Below, one piece after another: positions 903 to 32,700 of a stretch of 64,000 nt of DNA. This DNA comes from Clostridia bacterium. Lineage in GTDB: Bacteria > Bacillota > Clostridia > Christensenellales > DTU072. The notes under the pieces were generated by a model. That model was not told where the DNA came from, did no database searches, and was given only the letters and a program-made list of their open reading frames with translations. Each line of letters opens with the position of its first letter. The first letter of the stretch is position 1. The translations under genes were made by a program, and so were the position numbers. The DNA lies in the NCBI GenBank assembly GCA_017476265.1, contig JAFVAC010000036.1:2345-66344 (forward strand), in the 5' to 3' direction.

Positions 903-3900
903 ATGAATAACGACCAACAACGTAAGGTAGACGCAATGTGGGAGATGGTGCTTCGGTGTTTGACCGAGGCGCTGAACGGGACGAGAGTGCTGACCGAGAG
1001 TCAGTTCTCGATCATTGATCGTATCGTGACGTCGGAAGAGACGGCGAGACCCACTTCTCACTTGTTGGAGAGGCAAGTCGTAGTCAAGTTCACGACCTAC
1101 AAACTGAAGCTTGCGGACGAAGAAAAGGAGCGTGCGCGCGCGGAGAAGGCTCGTCTGACGGAAGAGGAGCAGGAGCGGCGGCGGCTTCTTGCCGAAGAGC
1201 GCAAGAGGGCGCGGCTGGAGGAAGCCAAGCGGCGGGAGGAGGAGCGGCTCCGGGAGGAGGAAGAACTTCGCCGTCGGGAGGAAGAAGAGGCGCGCAGGGC
1301 GCAAGAGGAGCGGGTCCGTGCGGCGACGTCTATGGACCTGCCGTTGGACTTTGAGAACGCTTTCTCCGACGACGACCGCGTCAAGGACGTGCGAGCCGAG
1401 GACCCTGCGGACGGGCTCTTTTTGTCGTTGCGGAATCTCGGACGGGTGGATATGGAGTATGTGTCCGCCGTCTGCGGCATGCCGCTCAAAGACGTCGTGA
1501 CCGCGCTTAAGGGCGTGGTGTATCAGAACCCGGAGACCTGGGGGGAGTGCTTTTATAAAGGGTGGGAGACGGCTGACGAATATCTGACCGGCGCGCTCAA
1601 ACGGAAGCTGACCGTCGCCAAGTCCGCCAACGTGGTCTACGAAGGGTGGTTCGACGACAACGTGCGCGCGCTCGAAAAGGTCCTCCCGCCGACGGTGCGC
1701 GGAGAGGAGATCTTCGTGACGTTGGGCTCGCCCTGGGTGCCCGCCGACGTCATAGACGAGTTTATTTTGTACCTATTGGGCAAGCCGGTCGGCTACTCCG
1801 CCGATTTTCGGGTGACGCCGCCCTCGTTGCAGGTGCGACACGACGAGTACACGGGCACGTGGGACATCCCGGAAAAGACCCGCTACGTCGGCATGGCGCT
1901 CTCCAATTCCGTCTACGGGATCCCGCGCATGACCGCGCTCAACATCATCGAGCGGACCCTCAATATGAAGACCGTCGTCGTCAAGGACGAGGTGTACGAT
2001 CCGCACCAAAAGAGCAATTTTCGGCGGGTCGTCAACAAGAAGGAGACCGTCGCGGCACTCGAGCGGCAAAAACTCATTCTAGACAAGTTCCGCTCCTGGA
2101 TCTGGACCGACCCGGACCGAAAAAAACGCCTTGAGGAGATCTACGAAGAGAAGTTCGGGTCCTACAAGCGGCGTCGGTTCGACGGGTCTTTTTTGCGCTT
2201 CCCGAATATGAGTCCGAAAGTGAGTCTGTACGACTATCAGAAGGACGCGGTGGCGAGGATCCTCTTTTCGCCCAATACGCTGCTTGCGCACGACGTGGGC
2301 AGTGGCAAGACGTACGTCATGATCGCCGCGGCGATGGAGATGAGGCGGATGGGCGTAGCCAAAAAGAACCTTTTCGTCGTCCCCAACAACATCGTCGGGC
2401 AGTGGAAAGAGATCTTTTTGACGATGTACCCGGACGCCGATCTCTTTATCGTCGAGCCGAAAATATTCTCTCCCGCCAAGCGCAACGAGACTTTGCGCAA
2501 GATCAGGGACGAGGACCACGACGGGATCATCATGGCGTATAGCTGTTTTGATCGGATCCCGCTGTCGCTCAAGGCGAAAAACGAGCAGATCACCGAGGAG
2601 ATGGAGGCGCTCAAACGGCGCAAGGAGTCCATCATGTCCGATACGCACGCCGTGGACCGTCGCATCACCGCCTTAAGCAAGCGTTTTGCCGAACTGTTAC
2701 AGATCAAAGAGGCGCTCAAAGACGTCGTCTGCTTCGACGAATTGGGCGTGGATCGTCTGTATGTGGATGAGGCGCACAATTACAAGAACGTCCCCATCGA
2801 CACGCAGATAGACGTCCTGACCGGCATCAATCCGAACGGCAGCGTCAAATGCCGCGAGATGATGGAAAAAGTCCACTTCGTACAGAAGAAAAACGGGGGC
2901 TCCGGCGTGGTCATGGCGACGGGAACCCCGATCACCAATTCCATCACCGACGCCTATATCTTCCAAAGGTATTTGCAGAGCGGAGAATTGGCTCTGATGG
3001 ACCTTCTCAGTTTCGACGCGTGGGTGGGGATGTTCGCCGAGCGGGCGACGGAGTTCGAGATAGACGTGGACACGTCCTCCTATCGCATGGCGACGCGCTT
3101 TTCTCGCTTTCACAATCTGACCGAACTGACCGCCCTTTTGTCCTCCATCGCCGACTTCCACCGGGTGGAGGGAGAGGCGGACTTGCCCGTCTGCAAGGGG
3201 CGCACGGACGTTTTGGTCAGAAAGACGAAGCCTTTAGCGGACTTTTTGAAGGTCATCTCCAACCGTGCCGACGCCGTCCGCAACGGCAGAGTGCGCATGA
3301 AGGAAGACAATATGCTCAAGATCACGACCGACGGGCGACTGGCGGCGCTGGATCTTCGACTCCTCGATCCCAAGAGTCCTTTTTTGACCGACAGCAAGGT
3401 GGCGTACTGCGCGAAGAACGTCTCCGACATCTGGCACCGCACCGCCAATCTCCGCTCCACGCAGCTCGTATTTTGCGACACGTCCACGCCCAAAGAGGGC
3501 TTCAATATCTACGACGATATGAAGAGGATCTTGACGACGGTCTATCGCGTGCCGGATTTTGAGATCGCGTTCGTCCACGACGCCGACACCGACAAGAAGC
3601 GGGAAGAACTCTTCGAGAAAGTCCGTCGGGGGGAGATCCGCGTCCTGATCGGCTCCACCTTAAAACTGGGTCTCGGCGTCAACGTGCAGGACAGGCTGCT
3701 TGCCGTCCATCACCTCGACGTCCCGTGGCGTCCCGCCGATATGGTTCAGCGGGAAGGGCGCATCATCCGGCAAGGGAACCGCAATAAAGAAGTGTTTGTG
3801 TACCGCTACGTCACCGAAGGCAGCTTCGACGCATATTCTTGGCAACTTTTGGAGACCAAACAACGGTTTATAGGAGCCCTTTTATCAGGTTCTCTGGACG

Positions 3901-4562
3901 TTCGGAGCGAGGACGACGTGGACGGGACGGCGCTGGATTACGGCGAAGTAAAAGCCCTTGCCGTCGGCAATCCGAAGATCAAAAAGCGGGTTGAGACAGA
4001 GAACCGTCTCAACCGCTATCGCATGATGCAGGCGAAGTGGATCGAGCAGAAGGAGTACTTGATGCTCAGGCTCGAGGAGTTGCCCAAAGAGATCGACAAG
4101 CAGAAGACTTTGATCGAGGAGGTGGGCGCGGACGTGGAGTACGTCGAAAATACCGTCCACAGGGTCGGCAACGACGAAAAGCGGGTGCTGAGCGAGCAAC
4201 TGTACGACGCCGTGCTTGAAAACGATATGAAAAACGAGGAGACGGACTACATCGAGTACCGCGGCTTTTTGATCACTCTCCCCGCCAATATGCTCAAGGA
4301 GAGTCCCTTTTTGTATCTCAAGAGGGCGCACCGCTACCGTGTGGAAGTGGGGGCGCGCGCGGGCGTCATCCGACGGGTAGACAACTGCATCGACGAATTG
4401 CGCGGCAGGCTGATAAAGTACGGCATCCGTCTGGACGAACTGACCGAGCAAAAGGCGCAGATCGAGGCGGAACTTCAGAAGGAAGTGGACTATGCCGATC
4501 GGATCGAAGTGTTGAAGCAAGAACTGAAAGAAATCGACAAGGAGTTAAAGATAGACAAATGA
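903..4562 (+). CDS. SNF2/DEAD-like superfamily-2 helicase with an N-terminal Glu/Arg-rich coiled coil
   Basis: The ORF is open 855-4562. ATG 903 is preferred because GGGGGA lies just upstream. Helicase motifs in the translation are AHDVGSGKTY (GSGKT codons 2298-2312), LYVDEAHNYKN (DEAH 2766-2777), MATGTPITNS, IRVLIGSTLKLGLGVNVQ and QREGRIIRQGN. The stop overlaps the next start (ATGA at 4559-4562). Confidence 0.85.
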   Translation: MNNDQQRKVDAMWEMVLRCLTEALNGTRVLTESQFSIIDRIVTSEETARPTSHLLERQVVVKFTTYKLKLADEEKERARAEKARLTEEEQERRRLLAEERKRARLEEAKRREEERLREEEELRRREEEEARRAQEERVRAATSMDLPLDFENAFSDDDRVKDVRAEDPADGLFLSLRNLGRVDMEYVSAVCGMPLKDVVTALKGVVYQNPETWGECFYKGWETADEYLTGALKRKLTVAKSANVVYEGWFDDNVRALEKVLPPTVRGEEIFVTLGSPWVPADVIDEFILYLLGKPVGYSADFRVTPPSLQVRHDEYTGTWDIPEKTRYVGMALSNSVYGIPRMTALNIIERTLNMKTVVVKDEVYDPHQKSNFRRVVNKKETVAALERQKLILDKFRSWIWTDPDRKKRLEEIYEEKFGSYKRRRFDGSFLRFPNMSPKVSLYDYQKDAVARILFSPNTLLAHDVGSGKTYVMIAAAMEMRRMGVAKKNLFVVPNNIVGQWKEIFLTMYPDADLFIVEPKIFSPAKRNETLRKIRDEDHDGIIMAYSCFDRIPLSLKAKNEQITEEMEALKRRKESIMSDTHAVDRRITALSKRFAELLQIKEALKDVVCFDELGVDRLYVDEAHNYKNVPIDTQIDVLTGINPNGSVKCREMMEKVHFVQKKNGGSGVVMATGTPITNSITDAYIFQRYLQSGELALMDLLSFDAWVGMFAERATEFEIDVDTSSYRMATRFSRFHNLTELTALLSSIADFHRVEGEADLPVCKGRTDVLVRKTKPLADFLKVISNRADAVRNGRVRMKEDNMLKITTDGRLAALDLRLLDPKSPFLTDSKVAYCAKNVSDIWHRTANLRSTQLVFCDTSTPKEGFNIYDDMKRILTTVYRVPDFEIAFVHDADTDKKREELFEKVRRGEIRVLIGSTLKLGLGVNVQDRLLAVHHLDVPWRPADMVQREGRIIRQGNRNKEVFVYRYVTEGSFDAYSWQLLETKQRFIGALLSGSLDVRSEDDVDGTALDYGEVKALAVGNPKIKKRVETENRLNRYRMMQAKWIEQKEYLMLRLEELPKEIDKQKTLIEEVGADVEYVENTVHRVGNDEKRVLSEQLYDAVLENDMKNEETDYIEYRGFLITLPANMLKESPFLYLKRAHRYRVEVGARAGVIRRVDNCIDELRGRLIKYGIRLDELTEQKAQIEAELQKEVDYADRIEVLKQELKEIDKELKIDK

Positions 4563-5674
4563 GCGAAGGAAAACTGAACGCCGCCCTGATGACGGTAGAC
4601 AAAGTGGTATCGGTCCTGTCCGACGCCTATGTGAGCGTCCTCGAAAAGGGACTCCCGGCAAAAGCCTTTCCGTCCGTGATGCTCTGGGGCGCGCCGGGCG
4701 TAGGCAAGTCGCAGGCGGTACGGCAGATCGCTGACGAAATCACCTATCGAACCGGCAAAAAGGTCGTGGTGACCGACGTAAGACTCCTCCTATTCAATCC
4801 CATCGACCTGAGGGGCATTCCTACCGCCAACGAGGACAAGACCGAGGCGGTTTGGCTCCGTCCGCAGATCTTCCGTATGGACGGGGGAAAGAACGTGGTC
4901 AACATTCTCTTTTTGGACGAGATCTCGGCGGCGCCGCCCTCGGTACAGGCGGCGGCGTATCAGATCGCCCTGGATCGGACGGTGGGAGAGCATCGCCTCC
5001 CCGACAACTGCATCGTCCTCGCCGCCGGCAATCGCTTGACCGACAAGTCCGTCGCATACAAAATGCCCAAAGCTTTGGCAAACCGCTTTTTGCATATCGA
5101 GGTGGAGCCGAGTTTTTCTTCCTGGAAGAAGTGGGCGATCGGCGCGGGGATCCATCCGACCGTCGTGAGCTTTTTGTCCTTCCGCAGGAACTATCTCATC
5201 GACGAGAGTCCCCTGTCCGAAGCGGTCGCCTATCCCACGCCGCGTAGCTGGGAGATGGTCAGCGACGTATTGAACAACGTCTCCGACGACGTTTCGGTCG
5301 TCTATGACCTGATCGCAGGATTGGTCGGATCCGGGATCGCCGTGGAGTATCGGACGTATCTGAAGATCTTCTCTACGCTCCCCGACGTCGCGGAGATATT
5401 CCGGGGGCGGGAGCCGACCGCGCCGAAAAGTAACGACGCCGTATACGCTCTGGTGGAGGCGATGACGTCCTACGCCCGCGCCCACAAGACCGACTACACC
5501 GCGATAGACCACTCCATTCGCTACGCGTCGAGGTATCTGTCACCCGACTTTTGCGCCGTCCTTTTGCGGAACTACACCTATCTCGAAAAGGACTATGTGA
5601 AAAAACTCTTGCAGATGGAATCCTACCGCAGATGGATGAGCGTCCACGGAAAACTGTTAAACGGAGCGGTCTGA
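4559..5674 (+). CDS. MoxR-like AAA+ ATPase (AAA_5 type)
   Basis: Walker A GAPGVGKS (4688-4711), Walker B ILFLDEI (about 4907-4924), AAGN sensor and ALANRF. The size (371 aa) and single AAA module are typical of MoxR/RavA/NorQ-type ATPases. The start overlaps the helicase stop. Confidence 0.85.
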   Translation: MSEGKLNAALMTVDKVVSVLSDAYVSVLEKGLPAKAFPSVMLWGAPGVGKSQAVRQIADEITYRTGKKVVVTDVRLLLFNPIDLRGIPTANEDKTEAVWLRPQIFRMDGGKNVVNILFLDEISAAPPSVQAAAYQIALDRTVGEHRLPDNCIVLAAGNRLTDKSVAYKMPKALANRFLHIEVEPSFSSWKKWAIGAGIHPTVVSFLSFRRNYLIDESPLSEAVAYPTPRSWEMVSDVLNNVSDDVSVVYDLIAGLVGSGIAVEYRTYLKIFSTLPDVAEIFRGREPTAPKSNDAVYALVEAMTSYARAHKTDYTAIDHSIRYASRYLSPDFCAVLLRNYTYLEKDYVKKLLQMESYRRWMSVHGKLLNGAV

Positions 5675-5770
5675 GTCGCTTGCGGGAACGTAATGGTATT
5701 ATTGCGCAGATTACACGCGAAGTGAAGCAAGCGTATATCGCATATGAAATATATATCGCCAAACAGCTAA

Positions 5771-6161
5771 GAGGGGGAAAATTATGAGGGAGGGGAGAGA
5801 GTTTGAGAGAGGGTTTGGAGCGATAGCCCTCTCTCAATTTTACTCCGTCCAATACGGGTATTGGACGGCAAAATCCACTAATCGGATTTTTAGGGCAGAG
5901 CCCTGAAACGTGCCGGGGTGCTTTTTCGACCGTCATCCTGACCGAGCGAGTGCAACGAGCGCGTGGAAGGATCTCGGGGATGGTTCGACTTCGCCACTCG
6001 TATTTACCGATTATATGTTCTGGTTTGGTCTATGCGTATAAGTCAATACTGTTTTTGGTTTTTGTTTTCCCTCGTCAGTTTGCCCTTTGGGCAAATTGCA
6101 CCATGACGATAGTGCCCCTGCCGTTCGTTCGGTTCCTTTCTTTGCGCTCAAGAAAGGAACG
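5771..6161 (+). repeat. Dispersed hairpin-rich repeat, copy 1 (long form with the 109-nt internal module at 5993-6101)
   Basis: Aligns by eye end to end with the reverse complement of 29231-29617, and with 12193-12486 apart from the module. It contains at least 5 stem-loops, e.g. TTGAGAGAGGG..CCCTCTCTCAA, CCGTCCAATA..TATTGGACGG, AGGGC..GCCCT and GTTCCTTTCTT..AAGAAAGGAAC. Boundaries are accurate to about +/-10 nt. Confidence 0.8.
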
Positions 6162-6200
6162 TATATTACTCCGACAGGGAGAAAGGACTGTGGAGGTCAT

Positions 6201-7544
6201 ATGAACGTCACACAGGAAGAGGTACGGGCGTACGTCCGCAGATTGATCGTCTCGAGGACGAGGCTGCTTGTCAAAAGCGGCTTTTTCGGCTTGCTGTTGA
6301 TGAACGCGACTTTTGCTTTGGACGAGACGTTGACGACGGCGGCGACCGACGGAGAGAAAATCTATTTTTCGCCGACGTTTTTGTCCGGATTGACCGACGA
6401 GCAACTCGACTTCGTGGTCCTGCACGAAGTGATGCACATGGCGCTGTCCCACTGCAAGCGGGGAGAGACATTCGATCAGAGGCTTTTCAATATCGCCTGC
6501 GACATCGTCGTCAACAGCACCATCTTCCGCTCTATGCCGGGTTTGTCCACCGTCCGGGTCTGCGGGGAGGAGCCCATGCGTCTCACGCCCGACGGACGGG
6601 AGGGCGCCGACTTCACCGCGGAAGAGGTCTACGCGATGTTTTTGTCCGACGGACAAAAGAAAAAGGGCAGCCGGGAGAAAACACGGGGCTCGAAGGGCAA
6701 GGGTGATCCCGGCGCGGGCACAAGCGGGTCGGACGGTCAAAGATCGTCCGGAGACCGACAAAAGGGCTCCGGCGAGGGCGTTCGGGAAGAGGCATCAGAT
6801 ATGGACGACGGGCAATTCGACAGTCACGCCAAGTGGCGGGAGGAGGACGATTCCCGCGAGAATGCCGACCTGTGGAGAAAGCGCGTCGCGGACGCCGCCG
6901 AGGCGGTCCTTATTCGTGATCCGACCAATTCACAAGGGGACGTCCCGGCGTTCGCCGCAAGGGTATTGCGCGACTTAAAGGACCCGCAGACCGATTGGCG
7001 CACCGTCCTCAACGACTTTTTGAGCGAGGAGCGGGTGGACTATACCTTTTTCCCGCCCGACCGCAGGACGGACGGACCTTTCTTTTTGCCGGACTTTAAC
7101 GAGTTCGACGTGACGGCGACGGACGTCTTGTTTATGATCGACGCGTCGGCGAGTATGTCGGACGAGATGTTGACGGAGGCGTATTCCGAAGTCAAGGGGG
7201 CGATCGACCGCTTCGGCGGCAGACTCAACGGACTGCTCGGCTTTTTTGACGCGGCGGTCACCGAGCCGAAACCCTTCTGCAACGAGGAGGATTTTTTGAA
7301 GATCAAGCCCTACGGCGGGGGCGGGACGAGCTTCTTTCCCGTGTTCGAGTGGGCGAGAAAGTACGCCGAGGACCATCCTTTGGTCGGGATCGTCGTCTTG
7401 ACCGACGGATACGCGCCCTTTCCCGACGAGTCGATCTCCGGCGGGATCCCCACCGTCTGGGTCGTCAACAACGAAGTGCGCACGCCGCCTTGGGGAAGGG
7501 TCACGCGCATTAAGAGCGGTATAGGGTCCGAAAAGCCGAAATAA
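6201..7544 (+). CDS. Putative zinc-metallopeptidase (HExxH) + von Willebrand factor A (VWA) domain protein, DUF2201-like
   Basis: ATG 6201 is preceded by GGAGG. The longer ORF from 6087 runs into the repeat and was not used. HEVMH lies at 6423-6437. A MIDAS-like DxSxS motif (MIDASASMS) lies at about 7135-7160, followed by a C-terminal VVLTDGYAPFP. A Gly/Ser/Lys-rich low-complexity linker lies at about 6650-6800. Confidence 0.8.
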   Translation: MNVTQEEVRAYVRRLIVSRTRLLVKSGFFGLLLMNATFALDETLTTAATDGEKIYFSPTFLSGLTDEQLDFVVLHEVMHMALSHCKRGETFDQRLFNIACDIVVNSTIFRSMPGLSTVRVCGEEPMRLTPDGREGADFTAEEVYAMFLSDGQKKKGSREKTRGSKGKGDPGAGTSGSDGQRSSGDRQKGSGEGVREEASDMDDGQFDSHAKWREEDDSRENADLWRKRVADAAEAVLIRDPTNSQGDVPAFAARVLRDLKDPQTDWRTVLNDFLSEERVDYTFFPPDRRTDGPFFLPDFNEFDVTATDVLFMIDASASMSDEMLTEAYSEVKGAIDRFGGRLNGLLGFFDAAVTEPKPFCNEEDFLKIKPYGGGGTSFFPVFEWARKYAEDHPLVGIVVLTDGYAPFPDESISGGIPTVWVVNNEVRTPPWGRVTRIKSGIGSEKPK

Positions 7545-7653
7545 AGAAGACCAAAATCAAGAATAATAGTTTTTTCATCGGGAAAGATGATCTTAAAAGA
7601 GGACGGAGACGAATCGTTTGCCAACCGCCTCTTTTTATGATACTATAATAAGT

Positions 7654-9897
7654 ATGAAGAGATATTCCGTTTCGGGTATGACCTGTTCCGCCTGTTCGGC
7701 GCGGGTCCAAAGAGCCGTCGAAAAGGTGGACGGCGTGGAAAGAGCCGACGTCAATCTCCTCACCAACTCGATGACGGTGGAGGGGACGGCTACCGACGCC
7801 GCCGTTTGTCGCGCCGTCAAAAAGGCGGGCTATGGCGCCCGACCGTATTCCGACGCCGTCGAGGAGACGGACAAAGGAGGACTGTCGAAAAAGCTCCGTT
7901 TGATTTTGTCCTTCGTCTTTCTCGTGCCCCTGTTCTTCCTTGCGATGGGTCCCATGATGGGGATCCCGATGGACGGACTGACGAATATACATTGGTTGTA
8001 TGTTACGATCCAGTTCGTTTTGACGGTGCCCATCATCGTCCTCAACTTTTACTATTTCACGAACGGCTACAAGTCCCTTTTTAAGGGCGCGCCGAATATG
8101 AACACGCTTATTGCCGTGGGTAGCAGCGTGGCGTTTTTGTACAGCGTGTTTTCCTATGCGATGGTCGTATACCACACGGCGGTGGGATCTTCGCACGAAG
8201 TTTTGCACGAGTACGCGCACAGATTGTACTTCGAGAGCGCGGGGATGATCCTGACGCTCATCTCCTTAGGCAAGTATCTGGAGGCGATCTCCAAAGGGAG
8301 GACCACTTCGGCGATAGAAAAACTCCTCCGTTTGGCGCCCGACGAGGCGACGGTATGGCGCGACGGACAAGAGTGCGTCGTCCGTTCGGACGAGGTCCTT
8401 TTGGGCGAGACGGTGATCGTCCGTACCGGGGAGAGGATCCCGCTCGACGGCAGGATTGTCGAGGGCAGAGGTGCGATCGACGCGTCCGCGGTCACCGGAG
8501 AGAGTCTGCCGCAGGCGGCGGAAGTCGGCGACGAAGTCGTCGGTGGGACGCTCCTTGTCGGCGGGTATATCGAGTTCGTCGTGACGGCGGTGGGCGAGGA
8601 TACGGCGCTGAGAAAGATCGCGCGGTTTGTTGAAGAGGCGGCGAGTTCGAAGGCACCCGTCAGTCGTCTTGCCGACAAAATAAGCGGGATATTCGTCCCG
8701 ACGGTGATGGGCATAGCCGCGATCGCCTTCGTCGTATGGATGATCGTGACAAGAGACCTCGCCTTTTCGCTCAATATAGCCGTGTCCGTTTTGGTCATCT
8801 CCTGTCCCTGCGCATTGGGACTTGCGACCCCCGTCGCCATTATGGTGGGCACGGGCAAGGGCGCGGAGAAGGGTATTTTGGTCAAGAATGCCGAGAGCCT
8901 GGAGACCTTGCACAAGATAGACGTCGTCGTGTTCGACAAGACGGGCACCGTGACCGAAGGAAATCCGTCGGTCGTATCGGTTGTTTCTGAAGACGTCGAT
9001 AGGACGATGACGATAGCGTACTCGATGGAGAAGTTGAGCGCGCATCCTCTCAGTGCGGCGATCTGCGCCGAAGCGGAGCGGATGGGACTGGCGGAAAAGC
9101 CCTCGGAGGACTTTGCGGAGGTCGCCGGACGGGGACTGACGGGCAAGGTGGACGGAAAGGTCGTTCTGGTCGGAAACGACAGACTTCTTTTGGAGTCGGG
9201 AGTGGATCTGCCGTATCGAGGCAAGGGGACGACGGTCTACGTCGCGGCGGGGGGAGAATATCTCGGCGCGATAGAACTCGCCGACCGCCCCAAGGACTCG
9301 GCAAAACGCGCGGTTGAGAGACTGCGGGAGATGGGCGTAAAGACGGTGCTTTTGACCGGGGACAACGAGTCCGCCGCAAAAGAGGTCTGCGACCAAGTGG
9401 GCATAGAAGAGTATCGTGCCGGGGTCTTCCCGGAGCAGAAAGCGCAATATGTGGACGGCTACAAACGTTCCGGCGGGTCGGTCGCGATGGTGGGGGACGG
9501 GATTAACGACGCTCCCGCGCTCACCGTAGCGGACGTGGGGATCGCCATCGGCGCTGGCACGGACGTCGCCATCGAGAGCGCCGACGTCGTATTGGTCAAG
9601 AGCGACCCCACCGACGTAGCGGAGGCGATCACCCTCGGCAGGCAGACGATGCGGATCATCCGGCAGAACCTCTTTTGGGCGTTCGGGTACAACGTCCTCG
9701 GCATACCGATCGCGGCGGGCGTACTGTATCCGGCGATCGGACTGCTTCTCAATCCGATGATCGCGGCGGCGTGTATGAGCCTGAGTTCAGTCACCGTCGT
9801 CACCAACGCGCTGCGCCTGCGCAAGATGAGATCGAAACGAGAAAAGGCGAAAAAAAGGGCGGCGAAATCGGAGCGGAAGCGCGCGGAAAAGAAATAG
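7654..9897 (+). CDS. copA: Copper-translocating P1B-type ATPase
   Basis: N-terminal HMA domain MKRYSVSGMTCSACSARVQ, transmembrane CPC motif (8803-8811), DKTGT phosphorylation site (8935-8949) and GDGINDAP hinge. An alternative TTG start at 7618 with an upstream GGAGA cannot be excluded. Confidence 0.9.
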   Translation: MKRYSVSGMTCSACSARVQRAVEKVDGVERADVNLLTNSMTVEGTATDAAVCRAVKKAGYGARPYSDAVEETDKGGLSKKLRLILSFVFLVPLFFLAMGPMMGIPMDGLTNIHWLYVTIQFVLTVPIIVLNFYYFTNGYKSLFKGAPNMNTLIAVGSSVAFLYSVFSYAMVVYHTAVGSSHEVLHEYAHRLYFESAGMILTLISLGKYLEAISKGRTTSAIEKLLRLAPDEATVWRDGQECVVRSDEVLLGETVIVRTGERIPLDGRIVEGRGAIDASAVTGESLPQAAEVGDEVVGGTLLVGGYIEFVVTAVGEDTALRKIARFVEEAASSKAPVSRLADKISGIFVPTVMGIAAIAFVVWMIVTRDLAFSLNIAVSVLVISCPCALGLATPVAIMVGTGKGAEKGILVKNAESLETLHKIDVVVFDKTGTVTEGNPSVVSVVSEDVDRTMTIAYSMEKLSAHPLSAAICAEAERMGLAEKPSEDFAEVAGRGLTGKVDGKVVLVGNDRLLLESGVDLPYRGKGTTVYVAAGGEYLGAIELADRPKDSAKRAVERLREMGVKTVLLTGDNESAAKEVCDQVGIEEYRAGVFPEQKAQYVDGYKRSGGSVAMVGDGINDAPALTVADVGIAIGAGTDVAIESADVVLVKSDPTDVAEAITLGRQTMRIIRQNLFWAFGYNVLGIPIAAGVLYPAIGLLLNPMIAAACMSLSSVTVVTNALRLRKMRSKREKAKKRAAKSERKRAEKK

Positions 9898-12162: not shown

Positions 12163-12192
12163 AAAAACCGAGCTGCAATAGGCTCGGTTTTT
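12163..12192. terminator. Bidirectional terminator candidate between convergent genes
   Basis: AAAAACCGAGC-tgcaatag-GCTCGGTTTTT, i.e. an A-run and a T-run flanking a 6-bp GC-rich stem. Confidence 0.6.
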
Positions 12193-12486
12193 CGTTCCTT
12201 TCTTGTGCGCAAGAAAGGAACCGAAAGAACGGCAGGGGCACTATCGTCATGTTGAGCGAAACGAAGTGAAGTCGAAACATCCCCGGGGATCCTTCCACGC
12301 GCTCGTTACACTTGCTTGGTCAGGATGACGGTCGAAAAAGCACCCATCACGTTTTAGGGCTCTGCCCTAAAAATCCGATTAGCGGATTTAACCGTCCAAT
12401 ACCGTATTGGACGGAGAAAAGTTGAGAGAGGACTATCGCTCTAAACCCTCTCTCAAACTCTCTCCCATTCCTCATAATTTTCCTCC
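12193..12486 (-). repeat. Dispersed hairpin-rich repeat, copy 2 (short form without the internal module)
   Basis: Collinear with copy 3 on the same strand, except that the 109-nt module is replaced by the 16-nt filler TTGAGCGAAACGAAGT (12252-12267). Confidence 0.8.
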
Positions 12487-12598: not shown

Positions 12599-14071
12599 TT
12601 ATTCTTCGGGCAGGGAGAGTTCGCTATACATCAAGATCTTTTCGCCACCCGTGAGGGGGAGGGTCAGGTCGGGATTGAGACTAAGCAGGGTCTCCTCTTT
12701 TACGCCGAGGGACTTGGCCACGTCGAAGAGGTCTTCGCCGGGGCGGGTCAGATAGAGGCTGATGGCGATATCGTCGGGCTCTTTCGGTGCGCCGAGGGTG
12801 ACTTCGGTGACGCAGGACAGCGTTTTTTCATCGGTCCCGCGGACTTTGACGTCGTACTCTGCGGAGACTTCGATATCGGTCCCGGTCTTGAGCCTTGCGC
12901 CGATCCCCTTGACGGTCAACGTAGGACGGAGGTCGGAGGAGCAGCCGTAGGCGCCGTCGATTTTGAGACTGACGGGGATGTCCAAAGAGCGGCTTGCCGG
13001 GAGGTTGTTTTCATCGGCGTACAGCACTGTGGCGGTGAGGACGCCTTCGACAAGGATGCCGTTATCGTTGACGGCGGAAAGAGTCTTGACCACGGGACCC
13101 AGGCAGGCGTAGACTTCGTTGACGACGGCTCCGGTGTTGAGGACGGCGGTAGATCGGTCGGATACGGTGCGCGAGCAGAAAGACGCGTCGTAGGTCGCCG
13201 CCTCCGTCTGAGCGGAACAGTCGTAGTCCACCGAGTAGCAATCGGTCATGACCGTCGTCTCGGACTCATACCCGAGCGTGGTCAAAAAGGTCAATTCCAG
13301 ATCGGTCAGGATCCCGCGCGGATTGCCGTCGGAGAGGGAGACGTCGCAGCGTGTGACGAGGCACTCCACGTCCGTCTTGACGTCCCCGTCGCACTCGCAT
13401 ACGACGTCGGTACCGAAGGGATGACTGAAAGTCTGTGTAAAGAACTGGTCGTTGTCGCTTACGGCGACGACGCGAAGGGTGATCTCGCCGTCCAGACGGA
13501 ACGCCCCCGCCGAGGGATAGCAGTCGGTCACGACGACGGTAGCGGAGCAGTCCGCGACCGATTTGACGGGCATACGCATCTCGTCCGATTGGGTTAGATA
13601 CAGATTGGACTTGTTGAGGTCCTCCCGGACCGTCTTTTGGTCGGATAGGCGACACACAAGGTCCTCCGACGGCGTGGCGATCGAGATCTGTCCGGGCAGG
13701 ATATACTGTCCGCGCACGGTCTCTTCGGCGACGAGTTTTCCTTCCGAAGCGTCGTAATAGCACTTGTTGACGTCAACGGCAAAAGAAGACTTTGTAGTCC
13801 CGTCTATGCCTTGTTGGGACACCGAACGAACTGTTTCTGCCGTAGTCGCTCTTCTTTCATAAGTCCCGGAGTCCGTCAAAACAAGCGCGTAAAAAGTCGT
13901 CTTGACTCCCACGCGGAACTCGTCCGTGAGAGCGTCGCACGAAGTCGCGTGCGCCTCTGCGCGCACCGCGAGGATCTTTCCGTCCGCCGCGTCCGGCACG
14001 GCGCTCTCCACGACCCGGACGACGCCGGTGTTGACCTTTTTGTCCACGACGACCACTTTCTTTTCCGTCAT
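12599..14071 (-). CDS. DUF3794-type repeat protein with a C-terminal LysM domain (SipL/SpoVID-like sporulation protein)
   Basis: I chose ATG 14071 (MTEKKVVVVDKK..), preceded by GGAGGGG, over the ORF-track start at 14263. The C-terminus DDIAISLYLTRPGEDLFDVAKSLGVKEETLLSLNPDL..GEKILM is LysM-like. The Val/Thr/Asp-rich beta body and the position next to veg fit clostridial SipL-type proteins. The family call is from memory. Confidence 0.7.
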   Translation of the reverse strand: MTEKKVVVVDKKVNTGVVRVVESAVPDAADGKILAVRAEAHATSCDALTDEFRVGVKTTFYALVLTDSGTYERRATTAETVRSVSQQGIDGTTKSSFAVDVNKCYYDASEGKLVAEETVRGQYILPGQISIATPSEDLVCRLSDQKTVREDLNKSNLYLTQSDEMRMPVKSVADCSATVVVTDCYPSAGAFRLDGEITLRVVAVSDNDQFFTQTFSHPFGTDVVCECDGDVKTDVECLVTRCDVSLSDGNPRGILTDLELTFLTTLGYESETTVMTDCYSVDYDCSAQTEAATYDASFCSRTVSDRSTAVLNTGAVVNEVYACLGPVVKTLSAVNDNGILVEGVLTATVLYADENNLPASRSLDIPVSLKIDGAYGCSSDLRPTLTVKGIGARLKTGTDIEVSAEYDVKVRGTDEKTLSCVTEVTLGAPKEPDDIAISLYLTRPGEDLFDVAKSLGVKEETLLSLNPDLTLPLTGGEKILMYSELSLPEE

Positions 14072-14186
14072 ATAATACCCCTCCGAAAATTCATTCTTGC
14101 TACACGATATTCCGGCGGGAAAGAAAGTATGACTAAAAAGTTTTTTTTCGGCAATACTTCGGACTATGAGAGAGGCAAAGAGCGAC

Positions 14187-14402
14187 ATGAATGCGACCGT
14201 AAGCCTGATCAAAGAGGCGGTGGGAAAGCGCGTCGGGATCCGGGTCAATCGCGGCAGAAACAAGATCGAGGAGATGGTCGGCGCGGTGGAGAACGTCTAT
14301 CCGCGCATATTTACTTTCCGCGCGGACGACGGGAGTCTGAATAGCTTCTGCTACGCCGACGTCGTGAGTAAAAACATCCGATTCTTTCGCGTGAGAGAGT
14401 AG
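14187..14402 (+). CDS. veg: Veg family protein (DUF1021)
   Basis: MNATVSLIKEAVGKRVGIRVNRGRNKIEEMVGAVENVYPRIFTF..SFCYADVVSKNIRF is collinear with B. subtilis Veg as I recall it (..[40 protein letters not shown]..). The ORF is also open from ATG 14166. Confidence 0.8.
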   Translation: MNATVSLIKEAVGKRVGIRVNRGRNKIEEMVGAVENVYPRIFTFRADDGSLNSFCYADVVSKNIRFFRVRE

Positions 14403-27821: not shown

Positions 27822-28642
27822 ATTGCCTCGCAAAGTTCTTCGTCGGTCAGACAGAGGGGGACGTCGTAGCCCGCGGCGGACAGGTCCGCGCTAACCGAAG
27901 TGGCTACGGGGAGCTCCAGTTTGGTCGCTCGGATCGTATCGGTCTCGGAAAAGACCTCCCGCGGAGTGCCGCGCAGGATGCAGCGACCTTTGTCGAAGAC
28001 GAACACGCGGTCGGCGCCGACGGCTTCGTCCATATAGTGCGTGATCAGGATCACCGTCACCCCGTCTTCCCGATTGAGACGACGGACGACGTCGAGGACC
28101 TCGCGTCGCCCTTCGGGATCCAGCATGGCGGTGCTTTCGTCCAGGATGAGGACGGAGGGGCGCATGGCGAGGATGGCGGCGATGGCGACCCGTTGCTTCT
28201 GCCCGCCGGAGAGTTTGTGCGGGGTGCGGGTGCGGTACTCGGTCATGTTGACGGCATTGAGGGCGGCGTCCACGCGCTGAATGATCTCTTCCCGAGGGAC
28301 GCCGAGATTTTCGGGACCGAACGCCACGTCGTCCTCTATGATGGAGGCGACCATCTGATTGTCGGGGTTCTGGAAGACCATCCCGACTTTACTTCGGATG
28401 TCATACACGCGCTGTTCGTCCTTGGTGTCCACACCGTCCACGAATATTTCTCCCTCGTCCGGCAAGAGAAAGCCGTTCAGGAGTTTGGCAAAGGTGGATT
28501 TGCCGCTGCCGTTGTGTCCGAGGATCACGCAAAACTCCCCCCGATTGACGTCGAGGGAAAGATCCTGTACTCCGACGGTGACTTCGTCGCCGTTTTTGTA
28601 GGAGTAAGAGACGTTTCGTGCGGTAATGAGCGGTGTTTCCAT
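27806..28642 (-). CDS. ecfA1: ECF transporter ATPase component EcfA1
   Basis: Walker A GHNGSGKST, signature LSGGQKQRVAIA and Walker B VLILDEST. ATG 28642 or TTG 28648 could be the start, and no clear Shine-Dalgarno sequence is seen. Confidence 0.88.
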   Translation of the reverse strand: METPLITARNVSYSYKNGDEVTVGVQDLSLDVNRGEFCVILGHNGSGKSTFAKLLNGFLLPDEGEIFVDGVDTKDEQRVYDIRSKVGMVFQNPDNQMVASIIEDDVAFGPENLGVPREEIIQRVDAALNAVNMTEYRTRTPHKLSGGQKQRVAIAAILAMRPSVLILDESTAMLDPEGRREVLDVVRRLNREDGVTVILITHYMDEAVGADRVFVFDKGRCILRGTPREVFSETDTIRATKLELPVATSVSADLSAAGYDVPLCLTDEELCEAICKLS

Positions 28643-28749
28643 ACGCAACAGTTTAGCACAGCGAAGAGAGAAAAAGCAACTTTTTGACAGGGTAACGCGC
28701 GCAATAATTGTGCGTGAGAGGATTTTGGCGGCAAGAACGGACTTTTTAC

Positions 28750-28778
28750 TTTACAAAAGAGCGATTTTAGCGGATAAT
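28750..28778 (+). promoter_or_regulatory. Sigma-A type promoter candidate
   Basis: TTTACA (28750-28755), a 17-nt spacer, then GATAAT (28773-28778). Confidence 0.45.
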
Positions 28779-28794
28779 AGAGTTCGAGGTGACT

Positions 28795-29124
28795 ATGGAT
28801 CCGATACTGATTGCCGTCGTCGTGGTGTTGTGCCAGTACCCGCTGGCGATTCTGACTTTGATAAAAATGTTCCGTTGCGATCTGGACAGAGCAGCAATGC
28901 TCGTCTGGAATTTCGCCATCATTTTGCTCCCCTTTATCGGGGCGGGCGCCTTTTGGATCTATTACCTATCCGGCAAAAAGCGAATCGAAAAAAACGCGTC
29001 GGACAAGCGTACCACCCGATCGATACAGGCGCGGAAACAAGAAGAGGAGAACGTTCGAGAACCGACAGAAGAGGGACCCGAAACGGAAACAAAGGGAACC
29101 GAAAGCGACGATTCCAAAGAATAA
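28795..29124 (+). CDS. Small membrane protein, PLDc_N (cardiolipin-synthase N-terminal)-like, with a charged tail
   Basis: GAGG lies 5 nt upstream of ATG 28795; the ORF is also open from GTG 28789. Two TM helices (ILIAVVVVLCQYPLAILTL and WNFAIILLPFIGAGAFWIYYL) are followed by a Lys/Glu-rich tail. Confidence 0.7.
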   Translation: MDPILIAVVVVLCQYPLAILTLIKMFRCDLDRAAMLVWNFAIILLPFIGAGAFWIYYLSGKKRIEKNASDKRTTRSIQARKQEEENVREPTEEGPETETKGTESDDSKE

Positions 29125-29143
29125 TTTAAACAACAAAAACGAA

Positions 29144-29163
29144 GCGCCGAAAGGCGCATTTTT
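29144..29163 (+). terminator. Weak terminator candidate
   Basis: GCGCC-gaaa-GGCGC followed by ATTTTT. Confidence 0.4.
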
Positions 29164-29230: not shown

Positions 29231-29617
29231 CGTTCCTTTCTTAGCGTAAAGAAAGGAACCGAAAAAACGGCAGGGGCACTATCGTCATGGTGCAATTTGC
29301 CCAAAGGGCAAACTGACGAGGGAAAACAAAAACCAAAAACAGTATTGACTTATACGCATAGACCAAACCCGAACATATAATCGGTAAATACGAGTGGCGA
29401 AGTCGAAACATCCCCGGGGATCCTTCCACGCGCTCGTTACACTTGCTTGGTCAGGATGACGGTCGAAATAGCACCCATCACGTTTCAGGGCTCTGCCCTA
29501 AATACCCGATTAGGGGATTTTGCCGTCCAATAGAGGATTGGACGGAGTAAAGTTGAGAGAGGGCTATCGCTCCAAACCCTCTTTCAAACTCTCTCCCATT
29601 CCTCATAATTTTCCCCC
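29231..29617 (-). repeat. Dispersed hairpin-rich repeat, copy 3 (long form, module at 29290-29398)
   Basis: Reverse complement of copy 1. The module differs from copy 1 at 1 of 109 nt, while the arms differ at roughly one position in ten by my manual alignment. The copy ends 58 nt before the -35 of the giant-gene promoter. Confidence 0.8.
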
Positions 29618-29674: not shown

Positions 29675-29703
29675 TTGACACGCGAGCGGGTTTGTACTAT
29701 AAT
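29675..29703 (+). promoter_or_regulatory. Consensus sigma-A type promoter candidate for the giant-gene pair
   Basis: TTGACA (29675-29680), a 17-nt spacer, then TATAAT (29698-29703). GGAGG lies upstream of ATG 29755. Confidence 0.55.
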
Positions 29704-29754: not shown

Positions 29755-32700
29755 ATGAAAAACATCGGACGGAAGAAGATATTGAGGGCGGTACTGCTCT
29801 TTGCGGCGATAGCGGTGGCTATCGTCTCTTTGGCGGCGTGTACCCTTTCCGATCCCGATACCTCCACGAAATTTCTGATCGTCAACAACGAAGAAAACCG
29901 TCCCAACATCGACACTACGACCCGCGATGAGGCGATTGACACCGTCACCGACGGACTGGAAGCATTGCGCGTCTATCTCGACAATCCCGACGTCGCCAAT
30001 ACCGGTTACTATATGGGGTTGGAATTCAACATCAACACCAAAGACACGAGGACCAACGTCCTCACCAACTTCCGCCTCAAGGTCCAGGCGCATCTGTTTA
30101 CTTACAAGTACATTGACGACGACGGGAACCCCATTTACAAGTACCACGACAAGCGCGACGGTAAGTATTACGACGTGCAGAACGCCGAAGGCACGCGCGA
30201 GTTGGTGAGCGCCGAGTCCATTCACAACGAGGTCATCAAAAAGAGCGACGTCCTCGTGGAGTGGTACGACGGCATCAACAACGAGATGCTCATCGGTCTT
30301 TATTACGACGGACTGAACGGCAACAGCGAAGACCCCGGCAACGTGATGTATCTCAATATCCAAGGCTACAAGAGGTCCTTCCAGGACTGGGGCGACACCG
30401 TCCTGTATCAACAGTTGATACGTCTTTTGATGAACCTGTCCATCGACAAACTCCTCGTTGCCGCCAACATCCAGGGCGACAGCGGTACTTCGACGCTGCG
30501 ACAGGTCTTCGAACTGCTCGTCACCGACAACTATAAGACCGTCTTAAACGGCGACGTGACCAGCACCCTGTTTTACGATATGAACGCGACCGCTATCGCG
30601 GAGACGTTGACCAACTTTATCCAAGGCGTCTTCCGTACTTTCCGTAACGACCAGACCAACGAGTACCCGCTGGACCCGTTCACCAACAAGTACCTCGGCT
30701 TCAAGTTCTCGGTCATGGGCGCCGCCGTCCTCAACGCCATCGCGACGGACATGCAGTTCTTTACCGAGCCCGACCCGACCGACGGGACCAGCGAGATACT
30801 GACCGGCGCGCACCTCTTCTTCGACGGAGCGGCGACCTCTTTGCGTAACAACTACGACTACGTCTCCGACGCCACTTTCGAGTACGGCGCGTATCCGCCC
30901 GAGGACATTCCTCTCGACAGACTCTTCTATACCCCGTACGAATACGGCAAGTACGAGTTCACCGGGAATCTGTACATCCCGCTCATCAACGCCAACTACG
31001 ACGCCCTCATCCGTACCAATCTGACGCAGTTCTATAACTACGAAAACAACATCTTCATGGAGTACCGCGACATCGCCAACGGCGAATTGATGATCGGCGC
31101 GTACTACCGAGGCGACATTGCGGCGAGCCCCGACGTAGACAGGATCAACGTCCACGACGAGCTGGTCCACGACAAGCAGGGGCGGACCTTCCTCGATATC
31201 TCCGGTATGGAATATCTGTACGGGTGGATCGACCTGAATCAACTTGGCTTCCCGAAAGTCTACGACGAACACATCAATATGGCGGACCAGATGGAGTCGT
31301 TCTATCGCGGCGTCAACAACGGCATCGTCAGTATCGTGGACAGCATCCTGAGTCCGGACAAAAACGACAAAGAGAACATGCTCATGACTTACCTGATGCG
31401 TAAGATGAGCAAGACGGAAAAGGTCGAAGGCGACATCTTCAGCCGCAACACGGAGACTTTGCTCGTCGATATGGAACTCATCAAGCAGTTCTTGCGGGAG
31501 ACGGGCGTGGGCGACTATACGACCAGACAGGTCATCAACATCCTCGACTCCATGATGCCCTACACGATGGACCAGATCGCCATCATGCTCGGCGTAGCCA
31601 ATGCGGAGATCATGTTGGACAACACCTACTTCACTTTCCGCTGGGACGTGGACACGCAAGAGATTCGTATCTGCATGTACACCAACGTCAATCGTACCGA
31701 GGAAGAGGGGTCTTTGTTGATCTTCCAGTTGGACCTCGTCCCCGTCATCGTCGGTGAACAGGTCAACATCGCCGACCTCAATTTCGACAACTTCAATCCG
31801 CTCGAGCAGATCTATACGTACTCCGCCACGATGAACGGGAACTTCATCTTCTCCACGGCGGAGACGGTGGACTTGTCAAAACTGCTCAGTGCGACCATCG
31901 GTGAAAATTCCGGTCTCAATACGCCGTATCAACTGGCGCAGAACGCCGGTATCACTTTCCGACTCATTTACGACCAGTTCGTGACCGATCACGAGGTGGA
32001 AGGGGTGATGCGGTACCAGGGCAGGAGCGCGTTCGAGCTCAACGTCTGGCTGACGGGCGCGGAGTCCAGCGTCATCATTCGTCTCGCCTCCGACGACGTC
32101 GCCTTCAACAACGACGTCTACAAAGAACAACCGCAACGCGCGGACGAGTTGGGCTACGTCTGGGTCAGTATCGAGTGCGTCACCGACAACGGCATCCAGC
32201 GCGTCCCCAAAGTGAAGATCCGCGAGGATATCTTCATGAGTTCCATGCAGGCGTATATGAACGGTACCAAGATCTCCGACAATGCCGCCGACTTAGGCAA
32301 CTCCGAGATCAACCTCTCCATCACCAGTATCCTGTTCGCCCTCGTGGAGGACAGCTACGTCGTCATGGAGCCGGAGCAGATGGAGATCACTTCCAGCAAC
32401 GAGACTTTGCAGAACCTCTTCCGCGTCAAGGGCTTGATCGGCAATATCCGCACCGACGCCGGGTTCACGCACCGCGTCTCCGGTCTGCAATCGGTCAAAA
32501 ACGATTACGGGATGTATCAAGTGGGGCAGTTCGAGAATTTGGAAGGTAACAGCCCCTATGACACGGCTCTGCATCAGACCATACCGGTCTACTTCTACGA
32601 GGACTACGTCAACTACCACTTCATCAAGCAATACGAGGACACTTTCGACTCCTTCAAGCCGAACAAGACTTCGGAGGGGCTGGACGGGTACAATTTAGGG

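Follow-up and report, generated by a model that had tools for sequence, protein, structure and literature searches.

Several classes of small repeats and structured intergenic loci have been described in bacteria. Bacterial miniature inverted-repeat transposable elements (MITEs) such as Correia/NEMIS, RUP, ERIC/IRU and bcr1 can sit inside operons and be co-transcribed. The bcr repeats of the Bacillus cereus group are about 100-400 nt long, restricted to this lineage and rich in hairpins; some are thought to be RNAs and some to be MITEs. Repetitive extragenic palindromic (REP) sequences and the REPINs formed by them are mobilised by an enzyme (RAYT, TnpA-REP) that is single-copy and encoded elsewhere. 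Stand-alone copies of TnpB-type omega-RNAs are known as well, and type I toxin loci (hok/sok, txpA/ratA, fst) are typically multi-copy, intergenic and highly structured. Here we analyzed a hairpin-rich repeat that is present in three copies within 64,000 nucleotides of an uncultured rumen Clostridia bacterium (assembly GCA_017476265.1, contig JAFVAC010000036.1, positions 2,345 to 66,344 of the forward strand), a stretch referred to as the window. The repeat, here named the element, is a mosaic in which at least three modules can be told apart, namely a block of ~220 nt with four hairpins at the 5' end, a central block of ~104 nt that is optional, and a 3' terminal module. The last of these is the only part of the element with relatives outside this genome, and the element probably belongs, as a local member, to a wider class of repeats that depend on hairpins and have not been described so far.

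A preliminary description of the window, made from the letters alone, had reported three intergenic copies. This was borne out by blastn, by MAFFT alignment and by the genes called in the ORF (open reading frame) listing, by Pfam and in the European Nucleotide Archive (ENA). The copies are:

5771..6161, plus strand: copy 1, conserved body (blastn, MAFFT)
12193..12486, minus strand: copy 2, without 93 nt of the central module
29231..29617, minus strand: copy 3 (blastn, MAFFT)
5739..5770, plus strand: diverged 5' leader of copy 1, CGCATATG..TATCGCCAAACAG.., with indels and a similarity of about 65% to its counterparts in the other two copies (alignment and direct reading)

The element is about 390-430 bp in size and was found in both orientations between unrelated genes. 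Identity among the three copies ranged from 90 to 93%. In blastn, copies 1 and 3 matched at 93.3% over 391 nt, and copies 2 and 3 matched in two segments, an initial one of 219 nt (93.2%) and a terminal one of 63 nt (90%). No fourth copy was detected by blastn in the 64-kb window, and none in a further 5 kb of the source contig upstream of it. Weak similarity (~65%, with indels) reached about 40 nt past the 5' ends given above, to roughly 5739, 12524 and 29660, and beyond that the flanks were unrelated among the copies. The 5' edge is therefore fuzzy, and the alignment placed a sharp 3' edge 0-3 nt after the terminal hairpin. Divergence was not evenly distributed. Copies 1 and 3 differed at only 1 of 104 positions of the central block and at 26 of 287 positions elsewhere (p=0.003), i.e. 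99% versus about 91% identity, which points to recent gene conversion or to a special constraint on the central block.

Along the body we found, in this order, a ribosome-binding-like site, the hairpins H1 to H4, a region with the palindrome ATCCCCGGGGAT, the AT-richer central block and the 3' module. Their positions are as follows:

5794..5907, plus strand: four consecutive 5' hairpins H1-H4 of copy 1
5794-5846, plus strand: H1, GGAGAGAGTTTGAGAGAGGG/CCCTCTCTCAATTTTACTCC
5845-5868, plus strand: H2, a perfect palindrome, CCGTCCAATAC/GTATTGGACGG
5872-5888, plus strand: H3, AAAATCC/GGATTTT
5889-5907, plus strand: H4, TTTAGGGC/GCCCTGAAA
5995..6098, plus strand: AT-richer central module M2 of copy 1, with the hairpin CAGTTTGCCC-TTT-GGGCAAATTG
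29293-29396, minus strand: equivalent of M2 in copy 3, 99% identical to copy 1; absent from copy 2
6122..6161, plus strand: 3' module of copy 1, linker GTTCGTTC and hairpin C-G-GTTCCTTTCTT-TGCGCTC-AAGAAAGGAAC-G
12193-12232, minus strand: equivalent of the 3' module in copy 2
29231-29270, minus strand: equivalent of the 3' module in copy 3

The 3' module consists of a YCTTTC linker (also GTTCTTTC) and a terminal hairpin of 11-12 bp, GTTCCTTTCT..AGAAAGGAAC. The arms GTTCCTTTCTT/AAGAAAGGAAC of this hairpin were perfect in all three copies, and the loop differed in each, as had been noted before; the loops read TGCGCTC, GCGCAC and TACGCT on the element strand, the strings first reported being their complements. 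A second stem, CCGTCCAA(T)/(A)TTGGACGG (also CCGTCCAAT/ATTGGACGG), is likewise kept with a variable apex, in agreement with the preliminary description. Copy 1 folded better than shuffled sequences on both strands (z = -3.8 for the sense and -5.1 for the antisense strand). Variable columns were enriched in unpaired positions (28/192 versus 15/204 in paired ones, Fisher p=0.024). One-sided changes among the copies, scored on the RNAalifold structure, gave a G.U pair on the element strand eight times and an A.C mismatch once.

A compensatory change from TCC..GGA to CCC..GGG in copy 3, which had been proposed as evidence for selection on secondary structure, turned out not to be real. In register, H3 of copy 3 shows a change of a loop base (the 'C'), one U-A pair changed to U.G and one A.A mismatch, and RNAalifold found double changes in 0 of 102 predicted pairs among the three copies. 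Three sequences at 93% identity cannot show covariation, and the argument drawn from them does not hold. Selection on structure is supported from another side, namely by compensatory changes in the families that share the 3' module, by their strand-specific G.U pairs and by covariation between the central hairpin and a second repeat, as set out below. As a separate observation, an 11-nt motif between H1 and H2 of copy 1 (ATTTTACTCCG, 5837-5847) recurs as ATATTACTCCG at 6163-6173, directly past the 3' end of the element; chance alone may produce a match of this length.

A metagenome scan for CGGTTCCTTTC-N6-10-GAAAGGAACG yielded 50 loci, and we estimate that about 1-2 loci would be expected by chance. 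The (Y)CTTTC linker stood directly 5' of the hairpin in almost every match, even though the search pattern did not demand it. Likeness to the element was limited to the last 40-70 nt of these loci (nhmmer), and the matches could be sorted into families. In the genome studied here three instances of the hairpin module were seen, all of them inside the larger element.

The best characterized of these families, here named Family A, belongs to Oscillospiraceae and is about 290 nt long, extending from about -250 to +45 around the hairpin. It is found among housekeeping genes at a density of up to 4 copies per 11 kb. The MnmG protein encoded beside one copy was 89-92% identical to its next-best homologues, of which the named ones were proteins of Oscillospiraceae or of Clostridiales metagenome-assembled genomes (MAGs). 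Family A has no Rfam model. Its alignment shows conserved unpaired motifs between covarying stems. In the RNAalifold structure 98.3% of the cells paired, compared with 93.8% in shuffles and about 50% in slid controls, and nine pairs carried double changes, a count reached in 0 of 500 shuffles. Flank-anchored variants of the Family A hairpin (GTTAC..GTAAC and CCTAC..GTAGG) were fully compensated. One-sided changes were overwhelmingly G.U on the element strand, and from this excess on one strand we conclude that one strand folds.

A presence/absence polymorphism was found for Family A. In locus L050 the spacer between a Metallophos gene and gidA measures about 1.03 kb and is made up of an inverted Family A-like copy, a small gene of the XRE family and a Family A copy. 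In the relative L058, whose GidA is 92% identical, the called genes at this position are 22 nt apart, blastn leaves 57 nt unaligned, and 22 kb of sequence are free of the hairpin. A different assembly is broken precisely within the module. In L050 and L053 the stop codon of the small XRE gene directly precedes Family A, and the family is followed by a terminator-like GC hairpin.

Two further observations concern the loci around Family A. The Oscillospiraceae metagenome contig L057 carries additional unrelated intergenic repeats (e.g. at 5129-5773, 6645-6696 and 8992-9232), among them GGAAGCGGAGC..GCGGACTTTGCGACGACGAGTTTCACGTGAAAC in direct and inverted orientation, a repeat that is also present upstream of Family A in L016 and L026; the genomes bearing Family A seem to be unusually rich in mosaic repeats. 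In L050 (reverse complement, 4245-4456), the small XRE gene carries at its 5' end a sequence, ATGGTTCCTTTTACAAAACGTTTGAAAGAAGCC, that is similar to the conserved hairpin (GTTCCTTT..AAAG.A.C), which may be either a coincidence or a hint at the origin of the module. We had also considered the terminal palindrome as a core site of a recombinase or as the operator of a helix-turn-helix (HTH) protein. Both were ruled out, as the spacing of the arms varies from 3 to 8 nt between families.

The central module has a possible relative closer by. A 129-nt repeat, here named R2, is present in two 100% identical copies upstream of the window, beside tRNA-Pro(CGG) and tRNA fragments. Three stretches of R2 (CACTCGTA, CCGATT and CCTCGTCAG) can be aligned with the central module of copies 1 and 3, and the central hairpin TTTGCCC/GGGCAAA corresponds to ATTCGCC/GGCGAAT in R2, i.e. 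three pairs are compensated. The similarity is weak (77% over 43 nt, E=0.011), and a relationship of the central module to R2 is probable on this alignment, not proven. The 3' module shared with other genomes, together with the resemblance of the central block to R2, indicates that the element is a mosaic of modules which occur in other combinations too. A tRNA-derived origin of the central module was rejected, since its likeness to the T-arm of tRNA-Pro extends over a few bases only. The region itself (L061, 6450-7160), about 2-3 kb upstream of the window start, carries tRNA-Pro(CGG) amid three partial copies of its own 5' half, a pseudo-tRNA with a 43-nt hairpin in the anticodon arm, and R2 repeats fused to a T-arm-like GTGGGTTCG; it looks like a rearranged integration hot spot.

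As far as can be judged from sequence searches, the full-length element matches nothing known. Rfam gave no match in the 64-kb window at the gathering level, and a sensitive scan returned only miRNA models far below their gathering scores; the preliminary description had likewise been unable to name an RNA family. No match to the element or to Family A was obtained by blastn among plasmids and phages, and pattern scans of viral contigs were negative. The 20-mer TTTCGACCGTCATCCTGACC, which is invariant in the three copies, had a single chance match in the GTDB representative genomes, within a coding sequence of Rhizobium. An internal 20-mer (ATGACGATAGTGCCCCTGCC) had no match in the JGI/ENA metagenomes, and a literature search with the hairpin string and repeat keywords returned nothing relevant. 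The preliminary description had held that its proposal would fall if only three copies existed and no covariation supported them. For the full-length element this is what was found in the data reached, whereas its modules recur elsewhere with covarying stems.

Compared with bacterial MITEs, the element is similar in being small, non-coding, multi-copy and intergenic and in having an internal-deletion variant. It differs from a classical MITE in two respects. All of its inverted repeats are local hairpins and none pairs the 5' with the 3' end, so that terminal inverted repeats are missing. A target site duplication of fixed length is missing as well: the longest repeats between the flanks were 8, 6 and 7 nt at inconsistent distances, and shuffled flanks typically gave 6-7 nt and reached 8 nt or more in 11%. 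A reading of the flanking CATATGAA and GGATATG as such a duplication was discarded as chance level. The comparison with the bcr repeats was made by description only; size and occurrence in Firmicutes are similar, but bcr1 has terminal inverted repeats and a TTTAT duplication, unlike the element.

With the REP/BIME/REPIN-RAYT systems (BIME, bacterial interspersed mosaic element) the element shares a short hairpin unit with a fixed 5' motif, a mosaic intergenic build and the lack of terminal inverted repeats and target site duplications, and Family A shares the compensated stems and the high density in some genomes. However, the unit of the element is 390-430 nt instead of 30-100 nt, there is one hairpin per element and not an inverted doublet, the 5' motif is CTTTC and not GTAG, and no RAYT gene was seen in the ORFs scanned. 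The palindrome-associated transposable elements (PATEs) and omega-RNAs of the IS200/IS605 family resemble it in their strand-specific subterminal hairpins (H1 near the 5' end, the terminal hairpin at the 3' end), in the absence of terminal inverted repeats and target site duplications, in a short motif just 5' of the hairpin foot, which is the position of the TnpA 'guide' tetranucleotide, and in an RNA-like body of a few hundred nt. Here the differences are that no autonomous parent with tnpA/tnpB was found near the fetched loci among the families listed, that the left end is poorly conserved and that the element ends 0-3 nt past the hairpin and not about 10 nt. As to a 5' target, the tetranucleotide in front of the body is TTAC in two copies (2 and 3) and AAAC in the other, and the similarity of ~65% continues for about 30 nt upstream. 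Taken together, the element lacks the features that define a MITE and is not assignable to REP/RAYT or IS200/IS605 without an enzyme. The earlier label 'MITE-like element or structured RNA' thus fits in outline, including its non-coding nature and the lack of an Rfam family, but not in the strict sense of a MITE.

We tentatively favour the reading that the element is a non-autonomous repeat following the logic of REP/BIME sequences or of IS200/IS605 PATEs and acting as a single-stranded nucleic acid, which would be mobilised in trans via single-stranded DNA (ssDNA) with subsequent gene conversion between copies. The 3' module would be the recognition handle; it also ends structured repeats which are otherwise unrelated and very abundant in Oscillospiraceae of the gut. 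Recognition of the hairpin on ssDNA would fall to an enzyme with its gene elsewhere in the genome, in the way that RAYT handles REP/REPIN and TnpA the IS200/IS605 ends (PATEs). RAYT group 1 transposases have been reported in Clostridia (PMC5581495). A route via ssDNA would leave neither inverted terminal repeats nor a target duplication, and the inserted copies could then swap segments by gene conversion, which would explain the 99% identity of the central block against about 91% elsewhere. Trans-mobilisation via ssDNA is favoured by several features taken together: terminal inverted repeats and target site duplications are lacking, the hairpins are strand-specific, a conserved short motif stands at the 5' foot of the hairpin, the build is that of a mosaic, Family A reaches a high density and one insertion polymorphism was found.

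Several points weigh against this reading. The 5' end is fuzzy and more diverged than the body, and the ends of mobile elements are usually their best-conserved part; to judge by the alignment, this argues against a simple transposon. Full-length copies are known three times only and show no paired changes among them, and the tie to the other families spans about 40 nt only. Family A is retained at orthologous positions across species (75-92% identity), which fits a functional RNA too. The host has no close relative in any database, hence there is no exact empty site for the element. With regard to an enzyme, no Y1/HUH, TnpB, IscB or other transposase was found in the window, and no transposase, integrase or reverse transcriptase (RT) was found by Pfam among the window ORFs scanned, as had been stated before for transposases. 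Near the modules no transposase was seen among 219 ORFs, a statement that for the 98 large ORFs refers to 25 of 92 families listed. No match to Y1_Tnp/RAYT was obtained among 121 small ORFs by the hairpin modules (all 24 families); whole genomes were not searched.

A more far-reaching and speculative version of this proposal would make the YCTTTC motif and the GTTCCTTTCT..AGAAAGGAAC hairpin the common handle of a large undescribed superfamily of modular elements in gut and rumen Clostridia that are structured as single strands. It would comprise the repeat of this MAG, Family A of Oscillospiraceae, which can be as dense as one copy per 3 kb, and two or more other families. Body modules would be swapped freely while the handle is kept and read by a trans-acting protein, in a new mobilisation or RNA-processing system and not a variant of REP/RAYT or IS200/IS605.

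The coding potential of the element has to be considered before the alternatives. Three ORF features are relevant:

5784..5906, plus strand: ORF1, with a Shine-Dalgarno sequence AGGGGG/AGGAGG-N7-ATG
5980..6204, plus strand: ORF2 of copy 1 (74 aa), a candidate only; its TGA overlaps the ATG of the DUF2201 gene
29241-29411, minus strand: ORF2 of copy 3 (56 aa), MFRLRHSYLPIICSGLVYAYKSILFLVFVFPRQFALWANCTMTIVPLPFFRFLSLR

A strong ribosome-binding-like site (AAAGGGGG or AAAGGAGG, N7, ATG) is kept at the start of the body in all copies. ORF1, which follows it, is frameshifted in copy 1 after codon 25, and between copies 2 and 3 we counted 3 synonymous and 8 non-synonymous codon changes on the alignment. 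It is probably not a gene and appears to evolve neutrally, with no protein-level selection. None of the three copies interrupts the frame of ORF2, and the loss of 93 nt in copy 2 does not shift it. Between copies 1 and 3, 6 of 170 positions differ in ORF2 compared with 21 of 210 upstream (p=0.016), and the five substitutions within the frame are 3 synonymous and 2 conservative V/F changes. The mean hydropathy of the product is +0.94, with a transmembrane-like stretch. On these counts the coding signal of ORF2 is suggestive, not significant. The concatenated ORFs of the element had no homologue among 5.8 billion proteins, and ORF2 had one match among 1.84 billion representative proteins, which was dismissed as low-complexity or repetitive.

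The main alternative, a real but doubtful possibility, is that the element represents a structured RNA family. It would be transcribed alone or within the mRNA of a neighbour and act as a stability or processing element of 3' untranslated regions (3' UTRs) and operons or as a trans-acting small RNA, its 3' hairpin would bind a protein or nuclease, and the copies would have arisen by ordinary duplication or recombination and not by transposition. The strand-specific pairing described above, with G.U outnumbering A.C among the copies and many U.G pairs in Family A, is in agreement with this, as are the unpaired motifs of Family A, its orthologous retention, its terminator-like hairpin and its start after the XRE stop codon. 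Copies 1 and 2 run in the direction of the gene upstream of them, a terminator lies 4 nt past the end of copy 2, and the divergence of the 5' leader resembles that of promoter regions of paralogous genes. However, a consensus scan found no promoter upstream of any of the three copies, copy 1 has no terminator before the next gene and copy 3 is antisense or divergent to both neighbours. Rfam gave no match for the element or Family A even below threshold, the palindromes H2 and ATCCCCGGGGAT are perfect and leave loops of 0-2 nt, a form that suits DNA better than RNA hairpins, and the density and insertion polymorphism of Family A look selfish. The trans-mobilised repeat and the structured RNA are compatible readings, since REP-like elements often become recruited as RNA elements.

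The remaining explanations are unlikely to different degrees. ORF2 might be a small membrane-peptide gene with a structured leader, similar to a type I toxin-antitoxin locus, with the Shine-Dalgarno sequence and ATG buried in the palindrome GGATCCCCGGGGATG and copy 2 inactivated. Such loci (hok/sok, txpA/ratA, fst, CD-RCd of C. difficile) resemble the element in being intergenic, 300-400 nt long and present in several copies, and in combining a long folded leader and a sequestered start site with a small hydrophobic ORF; the open frame, the in-frame gap, the reduced divergence and the hydropathy of ORF2 would fit. We consider this unlikely, since neither an antisense promoter (consensus scan) nor a homologous peptide was found, the hydrophobicity follows from the T-rich tract TGTTTTTGGTTTTTGTTTTCCC, and the 3:2 ratio of synonymous to non-synonymous changes is not significant (~0.2, own binomial estimate). 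Furthermore, the C-termini differ in all three copies due to indels in the loop of the terminal hairpin, copy 2 lacks the hydrophobic segment (31 codons) and R2 does not keep the frame. Very unlikely, in our view, are stand-alone guide-RNA scaffolds (omega-RNA or bridge-RNA) that a TnpB, IscB or IS110 nuclease or recombinase encoded elsewhere would have left behind or would use. The size of 300-400 nt, the dense structure, the lack of terminal inverted repeats and target site duplications and a scaffold end at the element boundary do resemble TnpB omega-RNAs in IS200/IS605 right ends. Yet no tnpB, iscB or IS110 gene was present in the window or by the module loci among the families listed (25 of 92 for large ORFs), HEARO and all other Rfam models were silent, and no residual 3' coding sequence of a nuclease gene was recognisable upstream of the hairpin. 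The least probable explanation, and one already disfavoured, is that of functionless relics, i.e. segmental duplicates of old intergenic sequence with incidental hairpins. It would account for three known copies without covariation among them, but the flanks are unrelated beyond ~40 nt, the folding energy lies well below that of shuffles on both strands, substitutions avoid stems, and the modules recur with compensated stems in other repeats and genomes. Two further candidates were dropped: a riboswitch or leader for the DUF2201 gene, as copies 2 and 3 have no downstream gene, and repeats of a group II intron, retron or diversity-generating retroelement (DGR), whose motifs were not found on reading and which have no RT nearby.

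For this window alone the finding is a modest one, a lineage-specific repeat with three visible copies. If the proposed link through the 3' module is true, the repeat families that fill the intergenic DNA of some of the most abundant gut and rumen Firmicutes are linked by a conserved hairpin handle of 40 nt. From our searches and to our knowledge, no REP/RAYT-type repeat system has been worked out for these organisms. Such repeats lie within operons and 3' UTRs and can alter expression there, and they could point to a transposase or an RNA-binding protein that reads hairpins and has gone unrecognised. For structure work, Family A provides a ready alignment rich in covariation. Elements of this kind also break metagenome assemblies, which was seen three times here. 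In Logan, the short-read contigs of the same run flank copy 1 and stop at it, the behaviour that a repeat would be expected to show.

The counterpart record of the window is the ENA scaffold XIEF21-1_SAMN15829995_METAG-scaffold_656, a MAG of a ruminant-gut Clostridia bacterium with the NCBI tags IJ735_, the ENA accession ERZ28654170 and the raw reads SRR12529321. The two differ at 6127 in the linker of copy 1, where the window has G and the scaffold T (GTTCGTTC versus GTTCTTTC). The scaffold has a gap of 10 N from 15220, and coordinates are shifted beyond it. A repeat-induced assembly or consensus difference is possible. An exact-protein look-up for sister strains with Veg matched the source contig only, and the organism was found in one sample only.

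The genes next to the three copies are unrelated. Copy 1 lies between a MoxR-like AAA gene (4559-5674) and a gene for a DUF2201 protein with von Willebrand factor A (VWA) and metallopeptidase features (6201-7544), on the same strand as both. The closest homologues of the DUF2201 protein were only 60-63% identical, and the orthologous AAA-DUF2201 spacers of the nearest relatives (238-285 nt) contained no trace of the element or of the hairpin module. Copy 2 comes after a SipL-like gene (12599-14263, minus strand), with a bidirectional terminator 4 nt past the end of the copy. Copy 3 is located between the terminator of the gene at 28626-29129 (plus strand) and the promoter of a 4365-aa gene (29755-42852, plus strand), on the strand opposite to both. 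The terminators beside copies 2 and 3 are:

12163..12192, either strand: bidirectional intrinsic terminator abutting copy 2, outside the repeat
29144..29157, either strand: bidirectional terminator-like hairpin 75 nt downstream of copy 3, outside the repeat

Additional features of the surroundings were recorded. The helicase-AAA-DUF2201 region (936-7544, plus strand) forms a three-gene set of an SNF2-like helicase (WH_1/DUF8437/ResIII/Helicase_C), the MoxR-like AAA_3 ATPase with overlapping stop and start codons, and the DUF2201 metallopeptidase/VWA protein. Its synteny is kept in the relatives L004 and L006, and PADLOC returned generic helicase-core matches only (DrmD/DpdE); the set may represent a module for defence or remodelling that has not been characterised. 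In L061 at 7150-7987 (minus strand), upstream of the window, small HTH genes of the XRE family (71, 68 and 75 aa) form a tandem of three, each with an AT-rich upstream region; the small XRE gene in front of Family A in L050 and L053 is similar to them. Downstream of copy 3, two giant tandem ORFs of 4365 aa and 5672 aa extend over 29755-42852 and 42876-59894 (plus strand). The 4365-aa ORF had no Pfam match and is preceded by a perfect TTGACA-17-TATAAT promoter at 29675-29703.

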